A DNA stretch of 64,000 nucleotides, from assembly GCA_010015585.1 (NCBI GenBank), contig ML975160.1; one strand, 5' to 3'. The notes beneath the pieces are model-generated. The model saw only the letters and a program-made list of their open reading frames with translations. It was not told the origin of the DNA and ran no database searches. The translations under genes and the position numbers were made by a program. How positions within the stretch are numbered: the first letter of the stretch is position 1; each line of letters begins with the position of its first letter. This document shows positions 12,912 through 64,000 of this stretch, piece by piece. This DNA is from Eremomyces bilateralis CBS 781.70 (lineage: Eukaryota).

Positions 12912-15437
12912 TTATTGGCTCGACTTTTCGACGTTGTCAATTTCCCTTGATTCGTAAAGGCCCGTTGTGGCTGGCGATTGACTTGCCACTGAGGTACCAG
13001 CTGGGCTTGCTTCTCTCGATGCACCGGAGAACGCATAGTTCGAAGATTGATCGCTGCTAAGGATTTCCAGAGAACTCGCAGGACCCATGGCCTGTGTTTG
13101 TGGAGTGGTGGGCCGAGCTGCTAGATGCGAGCTGCGTTCATCTGCTTTCTGCGATTGAGTTGACTCGACGTTCACTACGCGGTGGTCAATCACCTCTCAT
13201 TCTCGGATGATCGAACCCACTTATTTTGCCTCTGATCAGCTGCTCGTTTGGCTGGTATGGGGTCACGGAGCTGGGCGCTTTTAATCGTATTGGCAAAGTC
13301 CACTTCGATAGAGGGTTTCTCAAGATCTGTTGCAGTGAGTGACATTAATACCTTACATTTTAAAGAATTTCCAAGTATTGGAGCAACGTACCAGTTGGGA
13401 ATGAACCCCCACTTGTCTTAAACCTTCGCAAGGTCTTGTTGCAGCTTCTACATGTCTCCAATTTGTCCTGCTGTCTCTTTATCTTCTCTAGAGTCTCGGT
13501 TTCTCCAACAAGACGATTGCAATCTTCGGTGGACATGGTAGCCACCATTTCGGCAGAAAGGATATCCTCGAGACCTTCAAGCAAACAGTTCTCGATTCCG
13601 AGCACGATTATATTGTCAATAAAAATCTTGACTTTGATCTCGCATTAGACTTCCAAGCTGTCAATGATATCAGCAGCTCCATTCACCGTGGGGGAAGACT
13701 GCGACGTGGGTCTGTTAGATTTTAGTGCTGCTAGCTTGTTGAGATATTCCGGGGCGCAGGTCATGGGAATTCCGCTGATGTGCGGCTTCAAAAGCATTCT
13801 ACATATCCGATCCAACTCTTGCTTCCTTGCCTCCAATGCAGGTCCAATGATTTCTTCCATCACTAGACCCGCAACACGCTTGTCTGTCAAGTACACAAGA
13901 GCTTGGTCGAAGAATTGTTGCACATATAGCCACGCTTCATTCTGTTGAATGTTGACAATGTTCGGCCATTTCTGCACCTCAGCTTGGTAGAGATCCGTAA
14001 TCAGAGCGGCGTTTGGGAAGCCTGGCAGGTTAATCCCAGCATTGGCAGCCTCCAGAGTCTGAACGCGTGCTACTTCTTGAGCCCAAAGAGTCCAATTGGC
14101 AGGATGGCCTTCAGGTAGCACTTCGACGATTCGCATTCTCTTCCCTTGAGTCAACATGTGGTTCTCAAACGCTTGGTTCTGGTGAAAAATCTGGGCACGA
14201 ATCCGTCGCTTATCTCGATTTTGGCCTTCACCACCTTTGAAGAATCCATGCGTATAGACCCCATTCTTGGCAGACTGTATTAAGGCTTGGGGTCACTTGC
14301 TTTTCAAAACAGATACCGGCTCTGTTGTTCATTGGAAACACGCAGCTCACCAAGTTCTCGAAGCTCTTCGCACGTTACGCTGCCCCGGTCGATTTGGGTC
14401 ATGAGCTCTGGCAATGCTGCGCTAACGGCATCGCGGATAGCCTTACTCAATCGCGTCCTCAATGACTTGACACCCTTGGGGTTCTCATCCAGATCCACCC
14501 ATCGATCTTGGCTGAAGAAGTCGGTCTCGCTTTCATCTCGTTGTTCAATTGACTAGTCTTTCTTGGTTGAAGGGCGGTTCTTGAGGACGTGCCAGCCGTA
14601 TCTACTTGATTGTTAGATACCAAGCCTCGAAAGCTTTGATTATACTCCGCCGTCAAACATACCCGAAAATGCAGAGAGGATCTTCATTCGCGAGGATCTT
14701 GAAAACTCTGTCCTCCATCTCAGGCCCAGGGTTCAAGTCTGGCTTTGTAACGACGCCGAGGGTTCTGGAACCTTTCGGATCATATTCCTTAATCACGTCG
14801 AGGATCAAATTCAACTCCGGGTCTAAGTTGCCGTGGATTACTGCCATGATAATGGCGCGCTCATTCTTGAGGTATATGTCAAGAAGCTGCAATAGGATAT
14901 CCTTGAATGTCGGGTCTCTCCTCTTGTCACCATGTGCATAGATGATACCCGGCAAGTCGATCAGCGTTAAATGTGGCTGATTGGGTCCGCGTACTTCGAT
15001 GCGTAGGACGTCATCGTAGTAAGCCCTGGATGTCCCGTTAGAGGCAGTTTTGAGCGCATTCTGCGCTTCCTCAATGATACCCGAAATCGCATCTAGGCCC
15101 GTAGCCGCTTTGAACTTTTCGAAAAGTGGCTCAACGAGCTTCGGCACATTGCTCTCTGAACCAGGAACGATGGAAACTTTGGTAGTTGAAGATGAGTCTC
15201 TACGGAGGACCAGCTCCGTTGCCCAGCGTGTGCCTGTGCCTTCTGCAGCTGGAAACCGAAAGCCAGATATTGCTTCAGGAACGGAACTCTTTCCAGCAGA
15301 TTAGTCGCCGCACACAACCAGCCGGGGAAATGCAAAATACTTGTCAAGACGGTGAGGGGAATGAAACACACTGGGAGCGAGCCAACTCGGCTGGGAACTG
15401 GAATGCCGATTAGCTCAGAGACCATACTGAGCAGCAT
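12912..15437 (-). pseudogene. Mx-like/dynamin-family GTPase pseudogene
   Basis: PRLVVCGD*SAGKSSV (TAA at 15301-15303 within the P-loop), TRWATEL, LTLIDLPG, GVVTKPD, GWHVLKNR and the GED-like FIDNIIVLGIENCLL. Further stops near 14553, 14304 (with a frameshift) and 13645. Both ends approximate. Confidence 0.85.
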
Positions 15438-15620: not shown

Positions 15621-17063
15621 CAGCGGAGGACAAAAATAGCGGGACTCATTTCAGGCCTTGGCAGACCACCACCAAAATCTCTATTCACCTTCCATTTAGA
15701 TAATCAATTAATATGGCTCCCCAAACCCGTGCAGCAGCTCTATTAGCTGAAGATCGTAGAAAAAGGCCTCGAGAACATATTACAACACCTACAAAAGCGA
15801 AAATTAAGGGTGCTATTGAGTATATTAACGATACAAGACGTATCGATGGTTTTAATCGGACTTACACTCACGCCGATATCTTCCGCCGTTATGGTGTATC
15901 CAAAACCAGAGGATATGAGTACGCCAAAGCGGAAACAGAGCGGAGGGAACGGAATATCCCTAATCGACGCGAAACAAGAGGTCGACCGCCTAAAATCACC
16001 GACGAAGATATCCAACGGATGACCGATATCCTCGAGAGCGCTGACTGCGCCGAAGAACGAGCTATTGATTGGGATACACTCGCGCTTGAGACCGGACTCG
16101 ATGTTTCTAGCCGAACAATTCGTCGAGCTATGGAAAAGCATGGATACTTCAAATGCGTCGCGTGTCGGAAGCCGTACTGCAACAAACAGCTGGCCGAGAT
16201 GCGATTGAACCGCGCGAAGCTTTGGCTCGATAAGTATCCGACTCCGGATCACTGGAAATATATCAGATTTAGCGACGAAGTCCATTTCGGGATGGGGCCT
16301 CAAGGGAAGCTCGTTATTATCCGGAAACGCGGCGAACGGTACTGTCCCAAGTGTATCCAACGCGTGGAGGAATGGGACGACGCAGAGAAGCTCAAAGTCC
16401 ACGCATGGGCCGCGGTGGGCTACGACTTCAAGTCCCCCTTACCTTTTACGTGATACCGACGAATAAAAACGGGAAGATGACGCAGGACGTCTATCTCAAG
16501 GAGATACTCCAGACGGAAGTTCAGGAATGGGTCGACCGTGGAGATTTCTTCGTTTTAGAGGAGGATCAAGACTCAGGCCACGCACCGCCGCGGTCAAGGA
16601 AAAAAGGCAATGCCGTACAACAATGGAAAGAGCAAAATGGCGTACATTCGTACTTTAATTGCGCAGGATCGCCGGATCTTGCGATCATCGAGGACTGTTG
16701 GCAACCGACGAAGCAATACGTACGGAAATATCGCCATTTCAATCCCGAAGAGACTCGTGAATTAGCGATCGAGGCCTGGGGAGAGCTTAAACAGGAATGG
16801 ATTAATAAACGGGTACTTTCTATGCCTGATCGACTTCGAAAGGTGATCGAGGCTGGTGGTCAACTGATTGGTTATGGGGGCGGATTGGCGGGCTAACCGC
16901 CGCATTTTTTACCTATAGACTGTTTGTATAAGACTTAATAACGTCACCTTCCATTTTGACGTGGATTGACTGCGTTATTGTGAATATATCTGTTTTTATA
17001 TAGAAATCTGTACGGGGTGGTGGCGCCAAGCCCAATGTGAGTCCCGCTATTTTTGTCCTCCGC
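15621..17063 (+). mobile_element. Tc1/mariner (impala-like) DNA transposon, about 1.44 kb
   Basis: Perfect 26-bp inverted repeats GCGGAGGACAAAAATAGCGGGACTCA at 15623-15648 and 17038-17063, enclosing a DDE transposase. The left end starts CAGCGGAGGACAAAAA. Confidence 0.92.
15713..16896 (+). pseudogene. Tc1-family DDE transposase with a single frameshift near 16433-16440
   Basis: RGRPPKIT, VSSRTIRR, FSDEVHF, LEEDQDSGH and SPDLAIIEDCW. Adding one C to the C5 run restores KSPLTFYVIP and joins ORFs 15713-16453 and 16351-16896. Confidence 0.9.
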
Positions 17064-17675
17064 GGGGGAGGGGGTGTTTCAAGGGCAATCCATGCCTTTG
17101 TCCTGCGACCTTCCAACGTTAGGAATGTTTGTAGATATTACCTATTTCTAAACAAAGTACCTCAAAGTCGACATCTAGTCGAAGCGCCAAATCGAGCAAA
17201 GGAGAGTCCGCCAAATACCTGGAGCCGGCTAACGTTGAAACGGCCTGTTTAGAACGCGGTGGCTTCTACGGTTCTACCATGCTCCTGAGGCACATTGTCC
17301 CGACGACTACTTCTAGCGTCAATTATTTAGGGTAACCGATGGAATACTCCAGAGTTCGGGGCCATCAGCTTCGCGAGAGAGACGGGGCGTGAATGGCTTG
17401 TAAGTGGGACTTTTGATTAAAGACAGCAATAATCTCAATATAATACATGCGCAGCACACTCCCTTATCCCGGAGTCAATTGTAGAAATATTCCCATCAGT
17501 GGTGTTGTACTATCCGAACCTCCGCAGTTGTCCCCTTTGCAACTAGGAGTAGCTGCTCCATGGGAGAATATTCCCTGGCACTGGTTCGCACAGCAGACCA
17601 GCCAAATGTGTTCGAAGGGAGGGAAATTGTTGGTCTCCCGAATGCTAATGCAATTGCGTAGTCTCCGAACTTCCC

Positions 17676-20658
17676 CTATGAGACGGGCCCTTTTCCGAAT
17701 CCGCCAAACGGGTGACTACCGCTCGTCTCAAAGCCTGACTGTGAAGGTTTAGTGCCTGTAGTAGGGACAGGGGGCGTCCCTAGACCTCCGAAATTTTTGC
17801 TCTGGCCAAATAGTGACGTAGTTCGTGGTTCTGGGGGTGTAGTGCTTGCGCCATTGCGGGCCGTCGATCCATGTGGCAAATGGGCGAATAAGCTTGGGAT
17901 ACTCCGTCCGGGCGTTAACGGGCCAGCAGAGGCGCTCGTGCTGCCAACGGCGCCTGCCGCACCGCCAGTTGGCTGGGCCGAGTTTCTTCTTGAATAGTCA
18001 GCCAATTTCAACTCTTCGAAGGAATAGTCTTCGTGTGGAAAGATGGATGTTATGCTGTCAAAAATCTCGGTCCGACCCCTAGAATCCTTTTCGCTCAGGA
18101 AGCCGGGATGAGATACCACTTTGTTATTTAGAGTCTGGCTTGAAGGAGAAACAGACTGGCTAGGAGAGGTGTTAAACGGGGTCTAGTACTCCCGTATGAG
18201 TATGACTACCTACTTGGGTGGTGCGATTTTGGGAAAAGCGAAGGCTTGGTTGCCGGAAGTGGAAGGTTCGCCTATGATCCTTAGGGTACTTAATGGCGAC
18301 ACAGCGGACACTAAAGGAGTAGTGGCAGCCGGGCTGATATTATTTGCAGGTACATTCGGGCCTCCGCCGGGAGACTGTCCTGTATTTCTAGGACCTTGTT
18401 CAGGATAGCGGTTAGTGGTATTTCTCGTTCGCTCAGAACGTTTGACTAACCAGCTAGTCCCCCATGCTGCCCACCAACCCTATTACCAGCAGTGTTTGTC
18501 TGTTGGATGCTAGAAGAATCGGGTGGATATAGGCCTGTCATAGATCAATAACATGGTCGAATCAACGGCTGCGGAAATAAAACCTACCTTGGTCCTTCAG
18601 TTTTTCTGCAGATATCATCCTTTTCAACAAGGCTTGAGCAGCTTTCAAGGCTACTAAGGAATTGCTTGCTGAACGTCGAGCCTCTCCAATATCTTCGTCT
18701 TCCCCGGCAAGTCTCCCTAGCGTGTCATTATCCATGGCAGCCACAGTCGCAAGAGGAAGGGTATCTTCCAACTGGTGTAAGAGGCAGCTCTCGATGGCGA
18801 GAACGGCTACATTGTCAACCAGTATTCTCAATTTGATTTTATGGTATGTTGCCAGGCCGCTCAAAATAAAGTTCGCATAATGTTTCTCAGGGGCTTCCTC
18901 AGGTGAACCTCTGGCATCTCCGCCACCCAGCTCATCAGCGAGTACCCGACACTGTTTTTCATAGTCTGGGTCATATGTGATCGGGTGGCCTGCTTCATGA
19001 GGCTTCAACAACAACGAGCACATCTCTTGAAGTTCATGGTGGCGGGTCTCCAGCACATCGGATAGAATCTCTTGCATGATGAGATGTGCTGTTCGCTCAT
19101 CTGTAGCCGCTTGCAATGCCGCATAGAGGAATCCCTTGACATAGTTGAAAGTTGCCTCTGCATGCTTCAGTGTGACGTCTCGCCAATTCCCTTTGACCTC
19201 TTCACGAAAAAGGATCCCTAGGAGTTCGGAGTTTTGGAATCCTGGCAAGCTTTGTCCACGATATTTGGATGCTGTTTGTGAGACTGCATCCAGCGCTTCT
19301 GCTGTCCGACCGTTCTTGAACAGTGCTAGGACAGTACCCCTTTCGGGTTTTTGTACCGCCATTTCGTTGCTGTATTGTCCATTTCGGTCGTGGATATTCG
19401 CGCGCAATGTTGTCTTAATTCCCTGCCGTTGAGTGCTGAAAAATGGATCGCTGAAGTCGCCCTTTTTCCCACAGATGATGAGCTCTCGGAATTTCGTCAC
19501 AGTGTCCACCAGATACTTCCTCTGCTGCTCAGGCGTGGCTCTTTCTGGTCCAAATTTTCGAATCTGGAGCGAAATGTCGTTGATCCGTGTTTCAACGCCC
19601 TTGGTGAGTTGAGGCAACACATTTCCAATGCGCTTGAAGAGAATGGCACTGAGACGACAGCGAAGGGAACGTACACCCCAAAGGTTCGGATCCGCTCCAC
19701 TCCAAATGCCTTTGCGGAAGAACTCACGTTCACAAGCGTCGCGTTCGACGTCGGTAGTATTTAGCGTGGACTGGTCGCGATTCTTCAGTACGACCCAACC
19801 ATACTCAAATCCTCCATACTTGGAGTGCCGGTTCTTTGCAAGCTCGACAGCCACAGATTCTAGATCCGACCCGGGTTCGACACGGTCGGGCTTTGTGAGA
19901 ATGGCAAAGGTCCTCTTTCGTTCCTTGTCATATTGGTTGACAAAGTCCAATACCCTTTGGTTGGATGTATATTGATGAGTTTCAAGAACAGGCAATATAA
20001 TTGCGCTTTCGTTGCCGAGATATTTGGTGGCTATCCTTTTTGCTGCGTTCACGTCTTCGCTATCGCCTTCATGAGTGATACCAGGAAGATCGACCAGTGT
20101 GAGATGAGGTAGGTTGGGACCACAGACTTCGATTCGAAGGGTGTCCTCTATAATGAAGCCGTGATCGCTGTCTCGATGGGCCAGGTGGAGCACGGCTTGT
20201 TCTTCTGCTAGCAATTTTGCGAGATGGTCCATATCCGTACAAGTGGTCGCACGTTTTGTGAAAGCTTTCAAGGCGCCGGATGTTGCACATTCCGGATCTG
20301 CTTGGATCACAGAGACATGGACGACATGGCTTTCGGCCCTCTTTAGGATGAGCTCTGTGGCCCATCTTGTACAGCCTGTCTCCCTAATTGGGAAACGAAA
20401 GCGGGAGATGGCTTCCAAAACAGAACTCTTGCCAGCAGACTGAGCTCCGCAAATGATGAGCTGTGGCATAGGGACATGATTGCATATTCCTTGCTGGCGG
20501 ACTTCGTGGATCAGGTTAAGCAGTTGTTGCTGATCCCTTTGAAGCTCTAACATAGCATTATGGTCCATTTGAGTGTCTAGACCTGATAGGTCCACGGTCT
20601 CGATGCACTCTCTATGTGCCACCTCAGCCACCATGATGAGTTGACGTGTCATTGGCAT
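17676..20658 (-). CDS. Mx-like dynamin GTPase with spliced C-terminal GLEBS/FG tail; exons 20658-18588, 18534-18451, 18394-18214, 18159-17676 (about 939 aa)
   Basis: G motifs GAQSAGKSS, CTRWATE, DLPG and TKPD, plus stalk and GED. Three 53-56 bp introns (GTAGGT..CAG; GTTAGT..CTAAC..AAG; GTAGGT..TTAAC..TAG) keep the frame into ORF 17676-18119. Start codon uncertain. The dynamin call is firm; the tail fusion is predicted. Confidence 0.8.
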
Positions 20659-20870
20659 AACAGGGGATAAAAGACAAGTCAGGAGGACAAAGCGAAAGAC
20701 CAAAGCGATAGTAGAGGCAAAGATGGTCCCTCCCACAATTCGTGTAAGGAAAGGCACGAAAGATTCTCTAAATCCGTTGAAGCAAAGAAGGTTTGTGTTT
20801 ATAGACGGACATCTTTCGAGATGCTGAGGTTTGAACAGTTGAAGTGAATCAACAACACCTCAGCAGCGTA

Positions 20871-20886: not shown

Positions 20887-21170
20887 GTACCCACATTATT
20901 AATTACTGGAGTTATCAACATGAGTCATGCATCGGTCAGGGACTCCATTACAAAAGCCCGAACTGACTCAAGCACGAATTTTCTTAAACATTTGTCCGAC
21001 GTATCTCAACTTCAGTCTTCATTCGCCATCTACACAACTCTCAGTCCATACCACGGCTCATAGGACGACTAGACACCTATCCCAAGATACTGTTCATTAC
21101 ATATCCGGCGCGGTTTGCGCATCCCAGGACACTCGCAGCCACCAAATATCTCCGACCTCTCCACGCCACC

Positions 21171-22908
21171 ATGCACAGCAACCTCTCCCCCGAGCCGTCA
21201 GTGGTTACCATACAGGCGAACGGCGAGCCGCCGCTCAAGAAGCCTAAACTCCATGGACGAGCATTCTACGAAAACTTAGGCAGCCCGAAACTGATTCTGG
21301 CACCTATGGTGGACCAATCCGAGTTTGTACGTCTGATATCCCAAACAGATCGTCTTCCTGTTACTTATATATCACTAGGCATGGCGCATGCTCTCCCGCT
21401 CGTTCTTCCCTCCCGAACTACGCAGCAGCCTCCTCGCGTACTCGCCGATGCTCCATTCCCGGCTCTTCGTGAAGGAAAGCAACTACCGAGCGTCGAGCTT
21501 CCAGCCGCTGAAGACCGCGATCCCCGAGCCGTCGGAAGGCAATTCGCCGCCGAACCCGGACGAATGGCACCTGGATGGCAACCCGAAGTTTGATCGGCCG
21601 CTGTTCGTCCAGTTCTGCTCGAACGAGCCGGACGATTTCCTCGGCGCCGCGCGGTATATTCAGCGGTACTGCGATGCAGTGGACCTGAACTTGGGGTGTC
21701 CGCAAGGGATCGCGAAGCGGGGGAACTACGGCGCGTTCTTGCAGGAGGACTGGGAGAAGATCCACGCGCTGATCAGCGCGCTGCATAAGGATCTGGATAT
21801 ACCCGTGACGGCGAAGTTCCGGGCGCAAGAAACCAAAGAGAAGACGCTGGAGTATGCGAAGATGATCTTGAGCGCGGGAGCAAGCATTATCACCGTCCAT
21901 GGGAGGCAGAGAGAGCAGAAAGGACACAATACTGGACTAGCGGATTGGTCGATCATCAAGTACCTGCGCGACAACCTCCCACCGGAGACCGTGATCTTCG
22001 CGAACGGCAATATCCTCCAATACCAGGACATCGCTCGATGCTTGGAGGCGACCGGTGCCGACGGCGTCATGAGTGCCGAAGGAAATCTATCGGACCCTTC
22101 CATCTTCGCACCCCCTCCAGTGGGCGACGATAATCCCGAGTACTGGCGCGGCGTCGACGGCGAAGGCGGCTGGCGCGTCGACGCCGTATTCCGTCGCTAT
22201 ATGGACATCATCCACCACTCTGTCCTCGGGGTCGCCCCTCCCCCCCGCGCCCCGCTCTTCGATCCCCGCGCTCCCTCCTCCCCCCAATCCACCCCGTCGA
22301 CCGCCTCCCCCGGCGCGGAAACGGAACCCTCCGAACCTCCCCTAAAAAAACAGCGCCGCACCGACCCACCCGCGAAACCCAAAAAGCAAAAACGCTGCCA
22401 CGAGCCGAACTTGGTCGCCATGCGCTCCCACCTCTTCAGCCTCCTCCGCGCACTCGTCTCCGAACACCACGACATCCGCAACGCCCTCGCCCGCACCCAA
22501 ACCGCCGACGTCGACAGCTACGAGCGCGCCCTGCAAATGGTCGAGAAGGCCGTCCGCCAGGGCCTCGTCGACTATGAGGCCTCCCACGCGGCCGCGCGCA
22601 CCAACGGTGCCCAACCACCCCCGGCGAACGCCGACGCGCCTATCGACGACTCCACTGAGAGCTCCCGCGGCGCGATCGAGCGGTGCGACCGGCCGTGGTG
22701 GATCTGCCAGCCGTATATTCGGCCGCTGCCGCATGAGGCGGTGGAGAAAGGGTCGTTGACGTTAAGTAAGAAGGAGAAGAAGCGGCTGGCGGAGCAGGGG
22801 CAAGTGGTTGCGAATGGCGCGGAGAACGGTGCATGCGACGTGCAGGCGCCGACGGAAAAAATCGCGGTGGACGAGGTTGTCCAGCCGGCGGTGGCGGCGA
22901 CTGGGTGA
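21171..22908 (+). CDS. DUS1: tRNA-dihydrouridine synthase 1 (intron 21327-21378)
   Basis: LAPMVDQSEF|AWRML, DRPLFVQF, VDLNLGCPQGIAKRGNYGAFL, ITVHGR, ANGNI and DGVMSAEG. Confidence 0.95.
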
Positions 22909-53344: not shown

Positions 53345-55581
53345 CTCGACTTACTATGGTACAACGCACTGTTCTACAATAGTAATGAATAACTCTTAAC
53401 CTACGTGAATAATACCCGCGTCAATATTCTGGAAGAAATATTCAACTGGGCTGATAGGCAAGATGAGCGGTGCATCTTCTGGTTGAGCGGCCTAGCTAGG
53501 ACGGGAAAGTCTACGATTGCTCGTACTGTTGCGCGCAGATGTTTCGACTCAGTCCGTCTTGGAGCCAGCTTCTTCTTCTCAAGGGGTGGTGGAGACGTTG
53601 GTCATGCTGGCAAATTCGTAACAAGCATTACAGTACAGCTTGCAAGAAACGTTCCTGCTCTCCATCAACACATTTGTGACGCTATCGCAGAGCGCAGCGA
53701 TATTTCTAGCCGGTCCCTTCGCGATCAATGGCACCATCTCGTTGTCGGTCCGTTTTTAAAGCTGGTCGGCAAGGACTCCCAATCCTCTTATGTTCTGGTC
53801 ATTGATGCTCTCGATGAGTGCGCTGAGGATAACAACATCCGGATCATTTTACAGCTAGTGGCCGAGATACGATCGCTACCGAAGGTCCGGCTACGAATCT
53901 TTTTAACGAGCAGACCTGAAATTCCAATCCGATATGGGTTCTGTCAAATACCGGATACGGAACACCAGGACTTTATCCTGCACAACATCCCACCATCAAT
54001 TGTGGACCACGATATTACTATTTTCCTAGAATACAATCTGGCACTCATCGGGCAGGAACGCTCTCTAGGCGCTAATTGGCCCGGCGGAGATAACATTAAA
54101 CGTCTGGTTCAGAATGCAAGTGGCCTATTCATCTGGGCGGCAACAGCATATCGGTTCATCCGTGACGGGAGACGATTTACAGAAAAGAGACTGAGTACAA
54201 TTCTTGGCGGCAGTAGCAACGCTGCTACGGCACTAGAGAAGCACCTCAATGAAATTTACATTCCTGTTCTTGGGTATTCCATTTCCCCAGACTATTCGGA
54301 TGAGGAGAAAGAGGAGTTGTACGGAATGGTGAGACATATTCTTGGGAGTATAGTTCTGCTCTTTTCCCCACTCTCTTCCGCTTCTCTAGGCAGACTTATC
54401 CACCTTCAAACCAGGGACATTGACCAGACGTTAGACGTTCTTCATGCAATACTAGACATTCCAGAGGACCGACATCGCCCGCTTCGTCTACACCACCCTT
54501 CATTTCGCGAATTCCTCCTTGATAAGAAGAGATGCAGTAATTCAAACTTCTGGGTTAACGAGAAGCAGGTACATAGGGCATTAGCTACGAGCTGTATACA
54601 GCTAATGTCGGCCTCTCTTAAGCAAGACATCTGCGGAATGGAAGCTCCAGGTGTGCTCGTAGCTAATGTATCGAGCAATCGAGTGGAGCAATACTTTACT
54701 CCGGAGGTTCAATATGCATGTCTCTACTGGGTTCAGCATCTTCAGAAGAGCGATGCTCGGCTTCATGACAACGACGTAGTGCATCAGTTCCTGCAGATAC
54801 ACTTACTACACTGGTTTGAGGCGCTAAGCTGGATGCGGAGGATCTCTGAAGGGATCTATACAATTACTTCTTTAGAGTCCGTTGCCCTTGTAAGTAAGCC
54901 AACAGCATTACACGAGTCTTCCAGCTTAATTTGGTTCAGGAACATGACTGTCCCCGTCTCTCCGAGTTTATTCATGATGCCAAATGATTTGCACTATTTA
55001 ACCAACCAGTCTTAGAGTATGCTCCTCTACAGATCTACTGTAGTGCATTGATTTTTACACCTACGATGAGTGTAGTTAGGAGGCAGTTCAAAGACCGGAT
55101 ACCTCGATGGATGCAAAGATTGCCTAAGATTGAGAACGATTGGAGTGCTCTACTGCAGACACTCGAGGGCCATGCGGACCGGGTCAACGCCGTGGCCTTC
55201 TCGCCGGACGGCAAGGTGGTAGCGTCGGCGTCGAACGACAAGACGGTCCGGCTATGGGACGCCGGATCGGGAGCGTCCCTGCAGATGTTCCCTGTAGATG
55301 CTGTTGTTCAGACTCTTTCGTTCTCTAATGATGGGATATCCCTCCAGACTGAAAGAGGACAGCTACACCTCGCAATTCTCTCCCACGGTTTAGCTGCTTC
55401 CGAATCCAGCCGTTCATGGGCTATATTCGTGAATCAGCAATGGATTAGCTGGGGCATGGACAATATGCTTTGGCTTCCTTCCGAATATCGGCGCTGTTGC
55501 GTTGATATTCACAGCAACGTTGTTGCTTTAGGATGTGGATCTGGTCGTGTGTCAGTCATGGCATTCGACTTTGAATCTTAG
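53345..55581 (+). pseudogene. NACHT-WD40 NLR (HET-E/HNWD-like) pseudogene lacking its N-terminal effector domain
   Basis: TRV...IFWLSGLARTGKSTIART (Walker A G>R), VIDALDEC, FLTSRPE, GLFIWA, HPSFREFL and YACLYW. Intron 54890-54939, then an in-frame TGA at 54985-54987 (HDAK*FAL). One WD40 repeat ([17 protein letters not shown]...VRLWD). No ATG start. Confidence 0.88.
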
Positions 55582-63293: not shown

Positions 63294-64000
63294 TCACGAA
63301 AAAAGTTCCGCCTGCGCCTCCAGATCCATCGCCAGGACTTCCAGCTCAAACCCTTTCAACGTATCCTCCACCATCACCGCCGGCTTCCCTCCCTCAAAGC
63401 CATCTTTATCCGTCCCAGAATACTCCCAATACCAACTAACCTTCCCCCCCTCGTTCTTCGATTTCATGCTCCACTTGCCCAATGGTGGCGAGGCATACGC
63501 GCTCGACTGGTTCTCATCCAGCCCGCCCAGCTTGATCCTCCCCCTAACGGACGCGTGCATCCTCTCGTTGGTGTTGCTCAACTTCTCCCGCTGCGGCTTC
63601 CCCGTCAACGGGCCCGTCCGACGGTAAAACCTCGGCGTCCGATCCAAGCTGCCTCCGAGCGACGTTGGGAAATGGACCGACTCGTAAATAATGCCGACGC
63701 CCCATCCCCAGTTACGATGGAGCTTCCCAATGGTTTGTTGCTGTGTGTACCAGGCTTTGTTCCGGGCGACTTGGTCGGAGATGTAGGTGGGGTGGAAGTC
63801 GAGGAATGGCCGCAAGTTCTCCATCATCCATGCGAGGGAGATGGTGGAGCAGGCGGTGTCTTCATAGCTTCCGCCGACGCTGGAGTGTGCGCCTGGAAAC
63901 CAGCATTGTTTGAGGTTCTTTTCACTTGGTAAGTAGGCTGACCCAGATGCAAAGGCACGTTAAGAACTCACAGTTTTTGAACCATCGGGCTTCTCCCAAA
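63294..64000 (-). CDS. DUF2235 (Tle1-like alpha/beta hydrolase) protein, 3' part; runs off the window
   Basis: LKQCWFPGAHSSVGG, ISLAWMM, W..G.IYES, RTP and TNERMHASVR. Confidence 0.8.

Follow-up and report, generated by a model that had tools for sequence, protein, structure and literature searches.

Among the antiviral factors of vertebrates, the Mx proteins are a classic example. To our knowledge, the recognition of their fungal relatives is recent and no function is known for these, and we know of no antiviral function for any of them. In the part of PMC11789081 at hand, fungal proteins of this kind are designated MxF1 and MxF2, are described as uncharacterised and number five in Aspergillus fumigatus. 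Human MX2 (MxB) gathers phenylalanine-glycine (FG) nucleoporins into cytoplasmic condensates that mimic the nuclear pore and act as decoys for incoming capsids, as set out in the portion of bioRxiv 10.1101/2023.06.22.545931 at hand. A third described system is the GLEBS motif of Nup98-type nucleoporins, whose glutamate pair (E201/E202 of Nup98, E154/E155 in Nup116) forms salt bridges to Rae1/Gle2 according to the available sections of PMC3783196. The present work concerns a gene on the minus strand of a 64,000-nt stretch of contig ML975160.1 from Eremomyces bilateralis CBS 781.70 (GenBank assembly GCA_010015585.1; hereafter the window), with its coding part at 17676..20658. In this gene, splicing adds to an Mx-like GTPase a GLEBS-like motif of the Nup98 type and a short stretch with FG; the architecture had been predicted from the letters, and both transcript contigs and a significant similarity to the GLEBS regions of Nup98 support it. 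The last three, small exons add a disordered extension of about 250 amino acids, with the motif first and the FG stretch after it. FG repeats or a GLEBS on a dynamin or Mx protein were described in no paper found by a full-text search that covered few subscription journals and no supplements, which agrees with the original prediction that the architecture is uncharacterised; what is new is the domain architecture, within a recently recognised family.

Gene structure, transcripts and the GTPase part

An open frame of 690 codons on the minus strand (20658-18588) was followed by three short GT..AG introns of 53, 56, and 54 nt, and the four exons joined measured 2820 nt (939 codons plus stop) with no internal stop codon and with introns in phases 1, 1, and 2. 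The coding part of exon 1 (18588..20658) holds the entire dynamin-type GTPase (Dynamin_N, Dynamin_M, and GED). Intron 1 (18535..18587; 53 nt, phase 1) separates it from exon 2 (18451..18534; 84 nt), which encodes a low-complexity linker. Intron 2 (18395..18450; 56 nt, phase 1) presents a near-consensus donor, GTTAGT, and a branch site, ACTAAC, and is followed by exon 3 (18214..18394; 181 nt), encoding a Pro/Ser/Gly-rich linker. Beyond intron 3 (18160..18213; 54 nt, phase 2), the coding part of exon 4 (17676..18159) comprises 160 codons and the stop at 17678-17676, and includes the GLEBS-like motif and the FG stretch. Splice joining and contigs gave the limits of exons 2 and 3.

Transcript evidence was obtained from one public sequencing run, X1, labelled only 'RNA?'. 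The seven X1 contigs placed on the window were all at least 99% alike to it, with no differing letters. RNA-derived contigs covered 17449-17784, 17755-18159, and 18214-20831, giving an approximate transcribed span of 17449..20831 (minus strand); the loose contig ends at 17784 and 20831 resemble sequencing adapter, as judged from their letters. A contig of 2535 nt over 18214-20831 omitted exactly introns 1 and 2 (joint 18533/18587 for intron 1), and another one (depth 20.1, side 30) joined 18159 to 18214, with intron 3 spliced. Depths in the bins 18359-18509 and 18510-18660 (31.9 and 32.9, respectively) equalled those of contig 4 alone with zero cover in introns 1 and 2. The intron of the neighbouring dihydrouridine synthase (Dus) gene (21327-21378) was also skipped in X1 contigs. 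Four exact GT..AG skips, together with the absence of cover inside introns 1 and 2, indicated that X1 is RNA-derived, without visible DNA carry-over. The three introns were thus found at the bases and in the phases proposed for them in the original prediction, within one stop-free frame of the expected length (about 939 amino acids), and each of the junctions for which transcripts were to be inspected was seen in the contigs, instead of transcripts ending at the unspliced stop. The deposited protein for the locus (P0003; 698 amino acids, 18562-20658) ends in ...KDQGRFYFRSR at a stop codon inside intron 1, and therefore exons 2-4 and the whole tail are missing from the public annotation.

Intron 3 was found both spliced and retained. 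A 114-nt X1 contig crosses it unspliced (18130-18243) with a depth of 55.3, vs. 20.1 for the spliced joint, and both flanking contigs end exactly at the exon edges of this intron, the mark that two alternative paths leave. DNA contamination as the origin of the unspliced contig was set aside, introns 1 and 2 being without cover. With the intron retained, the frame runs AAG TAG into a stop at 18212-18210 and yields a 779-residue product that ends in ...FPKIAPPK and lacks both GLEBS and FG; the open reading frame (ORF) 18210..18479 has this same ending. Two transcript forms are therefore present, one fully spliced (939 amino acids, tailed) and one with intron 3 retained (779 amino acids, tail-less).

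In the 690-residue part encoded by exon 1, Pfam recognised Dynamin_N (PF00350, 8.8e-26, 91.4 bits with a cutoff of 27), Dynamin_M (PF01031, 1.8e-16, 60.6 bits with a cutoff of 28.5) and GED (PF02212, 2.7e-5, 24.7 bits with a cutoff of 21.4). The GTPase domain extends over residues 68-256 (19891..20457, minus strand; Dynamin_N envelope) and its GTP-binding motifs are intact (G1 GAQSAGKS at residue 71, G3 DLPG at 190, and G4 TKPD at 255). No PH or other membrane-binding domain was found in this part by Pfam at E <= 1; the protein displays the Mx/MxF-type feature of having neither a PH nor a proline-rich domain (PRD). By these sequence features, which define the dynamin superfamily, the protein is classed as one of its members. 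The closest solved structure was that of MX1 (3zys_B, 1.3e-20), DNM1L being near-equal (6.8e-20), and MX2 was also among the matches (4whj_A, 3.1e-17). A search of 5.8 billion proteins returned 2162 matches at E <= 1e-10, and the counts of homologues given below rest on the 120 listed among them. Among the matches listed, all named homologues were fungal, several of them labelled 'Interferon-induced GTP-binding protein Mx' by their sources, and those from Aspergillus, Penicillium, Claviceps, and others scored 1e-80 to 1e-106. These proteins, as the fungal MxF family appears in the part of PMC11789081 at hand, share with the window protein the combination of Dynamin_N, Dynamin_M, and GED without PH or PRD, and form a patchy, multi-copy family of Pezizomycotina; in contrast with the window protein, FG or GLEBS tails are not mentioned in that part of the article, where the words 'nucleoporin', 'repeats', and 'disordered' have 0 occurrences. 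The window protein probably belongs to this MxF group.

Human MX2 and the window protein are alike in being large GTPases of the Mx type, made up of a G domain and a stalk, and in having a disordered terminal extension linked to nuclear-pore and FG-nucleoporin biology, a link suggested for the window protein by its sequence. They differ in that the extension of MX2 is N-terminal and FG proteins are recruited in trans, whereas that of the window protein is C-terminal, carries FG and GLEBS in cis, and is optional via intron retention; moreover, by sequence DNM1L and MX1 are about equally near to its dynamin part.

The GLEBS-like motif and the FG stretch

The motif lies at 17994..18092 (minus strand; residues 801-833; EKD...IFDSITSIFPHEDYSFEELKLADY), where it had been predicted, and shares with the GLEBS of Nup98, Nup116, and Nup145N the EKD, the SIT, an 8-residue spacer, SFEEL(R/K)LADYS with its EE pair, and Gly/Ser/Thr-rich flanks containing FG. 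BLASTP aligned the tail with the GLEBS regions of two loci from metagenomes, L002 (6e-11, 35% over 72 residues) and L004 (5e-11, 43% over 54 residues), which belong to a set of six (L001-L006) obtained by a scan of metagenome contigs. The ORF of L002 (2536-6345) encodes Nucleoporin_FG, the S59 autopeptidase (3e-55) and, in the position of the aligned region, Nup98_GLEBS, and Nup96 (5.7e-84) comes after this ORF; these domains mark the locus as a genuine fungal Nup98-Nup96 gene; L001-L005 are probably nucleoporin genes too, judging from an FG-flanked GLEBS context like that of L002, the locus covered by the domain scan. No dynamin gene was found upstream of the GLEBS loci L001-L006. The last of these loci is located on a 118-kb eukaryote-like metagenome contig, adjoining a ribosomal protein S8-like gene; its 723-residue ORF (L006:9893-12061) has no Pfam match, is unrelated, and starts with a half-GLEBS (..PYTFEELRLADYS..).

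An exhaustive phmmer search of 1.84 billion representative proteins with the tail gave four proteins with E <= 0.001, of which three, P0123 (1.6e-8), P0124 (2.3e-6), and P0126 (1e-3), contain three tandem copies of ...SIT..P....S(F/M)EELR..DY..G.RG; Pfam Nup98_GLEBS calls P0123 (1.6e-11) and P0126 (2.1e-24), and P0124 has PF21240 in its precomputed domains. When longer proteins were sought with the tail through a word index, none of 1993 candidates reached E <= 0.01. Profile A1 was built from the window motif and four GLEBS copies, and control A2 from the same alignment minus the most Nup98-like rows. Against solved structures, the human Nup98 GLEBS chains 3mmy_B, 7byf_B, 4owr_B, and 7vpg_B led the A1 list with values around 5e-9, and the control A2 ranked the same Nup98 chains first (2.4e-3). 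Of the 58 matches that A1 gave in the large database, 54 carried PF21240 and 27 the Nup98 autopeptidase. The EE of SFEELK in the window aligned with that of SLEELR in 3mmy_B, which corresponds to E201/E202 of Nup98, so the dipeptide that had been said to be retained is indeed in place.

The 105 amino acids that follow the motif (17679..17993, minus strand) are rich in Gly, Ser, Pro, and Thr and display SLFA, SLFG, NFGG, SGFE, and PFGGFG; the four predicted FG-type elements, SLFA, SLFG, NFGG, and PFGGFG, thus come after the motif as expected. Four of the six Phe in this stretch are followed by Gly (SLFG, NFGG, PFGGFG; shuffle P = 0.009, 0.00875 unrounded), and large hydrophobic residues other than F, L, V, and I are absent. 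The claim of an FG tail held as regards the presence of the stretch, but it amounts to only four FG motifs and, taken on its own, the tail of the window protein is thin. No Nucleoporin2/S59 or other nucleoporin domain was detected by Pfam in any exon and, in the absence of an anchoring domain, the window protein is not a nucleoporin: it differs from the GLFG nucleoporins of the Nup98 type in lacking an S59 autopeptidase, a Nup96 part, and a long GLFG array, and in carrying its motif on a dynamin GTPase. Look-alikes in the ESM Atlas include clusters of FG nucleoporins, every score being below 0.9, and are given as a lead only.

FG-rich tails were also found in relatives of the window protein. 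The tail count was restricted to those 94 of the 120 listed homologues whose alignment reaches the end of the GED, the other 26 being dropped; extensions of at least 100 amino acids occurred in 32 of these 94 proteins and FG-rich tails (at least four FG, shuffle P <= 0.009) in 10, which came from Aspergillus, Penicillium, Talaromyces, Blastomyces, Candelaria, Cudoniella, and one further source. Many repeats in these tails read GLFG or SLFG. In a FastTree phylogeny of the window protein and 119 homologues (P0003, the window's own model, was left out), all 11 FG-tailed rows, window included, fell inside one split of 44 rows (support 99), and seven of them inside a split of 16 rows that holds the window protein (support 97). 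The FG-tail label needed 7 changes on the tree, the shuffled mean being 10.7, and 0 of 500 shuffles gave a value as low.

Two relatives carry the first half of a GLEBS exactly where their gene models end or diverge. P0076 (Cirrosporium, residues 988-1012) ends in ...YEAISALRNYEDYSFE (..YSFE), then VRV and the stop, and P0113 (Aspergillus felis, residues ~1043-1060) has a GLFG/SLFG array, then ...HISAFPPFDKYSPE (..YSPE), then VC... From these letters we infer that VRV and VC are the translated start of an unrecognised GT-intron inside the motif. Other members of the clade end in ..EGFNE, ..EGYNS, or ..IQGYKPS, endings that may reflect the same read-through intron. The gene models of the relatives are probably truncated too.

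GLEBS motifs also occur in proteins that are not nucleoporins. P0123 and P0124 have three GLEBS; P0126 (three GLEBS; P0126/P0127), P0130, P0131, and P0136 have a RING, and P0140 and P0141 a DnaJ; P0133 (Lophium mytilinum, labelled F-box) has two GLEBS copies. As in the window protein, the same short motif appears in them as a portable module outside nucleoporins, whereas their partner domains are others, none is a dynamin domain, and all of them are uncharacterised. They could be adaptors or ligases directed to Gle2/Rae1.

Possible roles of the tailed form

We propose that the long isoform docks on Gle2 or on the FG phase of the pore, under regulation by intron retention, and give this reading a probability of roughly one half. 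The GLEBS hairpin of the long isoform would bind the top face of the WD40 propeller of Gle2/Rae1 through the EE pair, in a Nup98-like manner, and the FG motifs would contribute a weak attraction to transport receptors or to the FG phase of the pore. The self-assembling GTPase would be brought in this way to the cytoplasmic face of the pore, to Gle2-bound messenger ribonucleoproteins, or to pore-like condensates, and the retention of intron 3 would set the share of protein so addressed. By analogy with MX2, the outcome may be a surveillance of particles that need passage through the pore, such as mycoviruses or retroelement capsids.

Several results weigh against such docking. In X1, where the unspliced path is deeper (contig k-mer depths being a rough measure), the tailed isoform may be the less abundant of the two. 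The best dynamin homologue is just 35% identical among the matches listed and the branch of the window protein in the tree is long (1.64); because of both, conservation of this particular tail is not demonstrable and its placement in the tree is unsure. Over the entire 249-residue extension, FG enrichment fell short of significance (P = 0.063), with just the four FG mentioned. Within the motif, four residues ahead of the Ser of S-F/L-EEL, a His (FPHEDYSFEEL) replaces the conserved Tyr, in a position occupied by Tyr in nearly all rows compared (L002 and L004 have PY), and Lys is present instead of Arg after EEL. Pfam Nup98_GLEBS (PF21240, gathering threshold of 27 bits) gave no match to the tail or to the 44-residue motif at E <= 10, which, together with the His, also separates the window motif from those of Nup98-type nucleoporins. 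Direct phmmer searches of solved structures with the 160-residue tail and the 44-residue motif did not retrieve Nup98 (the sole match, 1s7o, was dismissed as chance), and a dynamin domain was present in 0 of the 58 matches of profile A1 in the large database, in which truncated gene models like the window's own may hide dynamin-GLEBS fusions.

The silence of Pfam on the window motif is weak evidence, since the genuine GLEBS of L002 scored just 23.2 bits on PF21240 and remained likewise under the cutoff; the Pfam model under-calls fungal motifs. The profile comparison called for in the original prediction was positive with our own profiles and with BLASTP but not with PF21240. The Nup98-type identity assigned to the motif stood in its significant similarity and in the EE pair and fell short in one changed conserved aromatic residue and in the missing Pfam call. 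Considering the failed Pfam threshold and the changed residue, the wording 'GLEBS-like' was chosen: the tail is described, by its sequence, as bearing a Nup98-type GLEBS-like motif, and the protein is not filed as a member of the GLEBS family.

Most of these same points would fit a different explanation, in which the tail is a young, mostly neutral exonised fragment resembling Nup98, the working form is the 779-residue tail-less isoform or a similar one, and the likeness to GLEBS has no consequence for binding. The deeper intron-3-retained contig (55.3 vs. 20.1), the lack of a close orthologue in which purifying selection could be seen, the exchange of the conserved Tyr for His with Pfam silent, and the low number of FG all favour it. 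Nevertheless, the frame stays open through 249 codons over three consecutive introns, the EE pair, the SIT, the DY, and the spacing of 8 residues are maintained together with significant similarity to real GLEBS, and FG-rich tails recur and cluster among relatives, two of which show half-motifs. This recurrence and clustering, with the half-motifs, argue for a maintained feature of the clade, and we regard the neutral origin as rather unlikely.

The tail could also act as an effector, the GLEBS of the long isoform titrating Gle2/Rae1 off Nup98 and stopping mRNA export, as an abortive, self-limiting response in an infected or stressed compartment. [quoted passage not shown] However, each polypeptide offers a single GLEBS, so that high expression would be needed to titrate Gle2, and the evidence from the neighbourhood is weak, with genes tens of kilobases apart; such a role seems unlikely.

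A third alternative is that of an integrated decoy, in which the tail would mimic the Rae1-Nup98 interface so that a protein of a virus or parasite aimed at it engages the tail and triggers the GTPase. Viral proteins are known to target Rae1-Nup98, solved complexes with viral partners (4owr, 7vpg/7vph) are among the profile matches, and genes of fungal immune-like kinds are found nearby. A decoy of this type must nevertheless load Gle2 first, and thus needs the binding step of the docking reading, from which nothing separates it; we know, in addition, of no mycovirus factor that targets Gle2-Nup98, which counts against it. We consider it quite improbable. Finally, the Rae1 paralogue Bub3 is bound by GLEBS-like motifs of Bub1 and Mad3/BubR1, which also have an EE pair, and a GTPase tied by such a motif to kinetochores or mitosis rather than to Gle2 was set aside as highly improbable, because no Bub1, Mad3, or BubR1 chain appeared among the 21 (A1) or 17 (A2) solved matches at E <= 10, Nup98 chains headed both lists, and the upstream EKD...SIT and the downstream DYS match fungal Nup98.

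Going beyond docking of the single protein on Gle2 or the pore, one may imagine a whole clade of fungal Mx-like proteins with their own nucleoporin-like tail (FG, and GLEBS in some), which would sit at pores or in pore-mimicking condensates and intercept mycovirus or retroelement particles. The link between Mx proteins and the pore, as seen with human MX2, would then be either very old or a second invention in cis, with the splicing of one retained intron turning the tailed form on. We find this wider picture possible but doubtful.

Surroundings of the locus and meaning for the family

A second Mx-like dynamin paralogue is located at 13363-15330 (minus strand), about 2.3 kb downstream and in tandem on the same strand. 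It was recovered as three tblastn pieces of 31-37% identity, with a Dynamin_N match of 6.1e-21 and a weak GED match, and no FG or GLEBS tail was seen in the frames read downstream of it. The remnant of a Tc1/mariner-type transposase (15704-16896, plus strand; HTH_Tnp_Tc3_2 and a weak DDE_3) lies between the two dynamin paralogues. In the neighbouring dihydrouridine synthase gene (21057-22908, plus strand), the 52-nt GT..AG intron at 21327-21378 was confirmed by a contig whose depth, 1226, was far above that of the dynamin gene (around 50). Farther away, a NACHT/NPHP3_N NLR-like ORF (53393-55012) and a fragment (63297-63959) with a lipase domain of the type VI secretion system Tle1-like (DUF2235-type) kind were detected, both being of kinds found in fungal immune-like repertoires. 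The neighbourhood is mildly immune-flavoured, to which we give little weight given the large distances.

From a practical point of view, the public gene model is truncated at this locus, and the GLEBS appears as a portable module, present on RING, DnaJ, and other proteins. A candidate Gle2-binding motif of the Nup98 type in cis, accompanied by FG, provides a concrete hypothesis on the role and the site of fungal Mx-like proteins, and relatives with larger FG tails make the question one of a clade and not of a single gene. The finding hints that a link between Mx proteins and the nuclear pore exists in fungi too.

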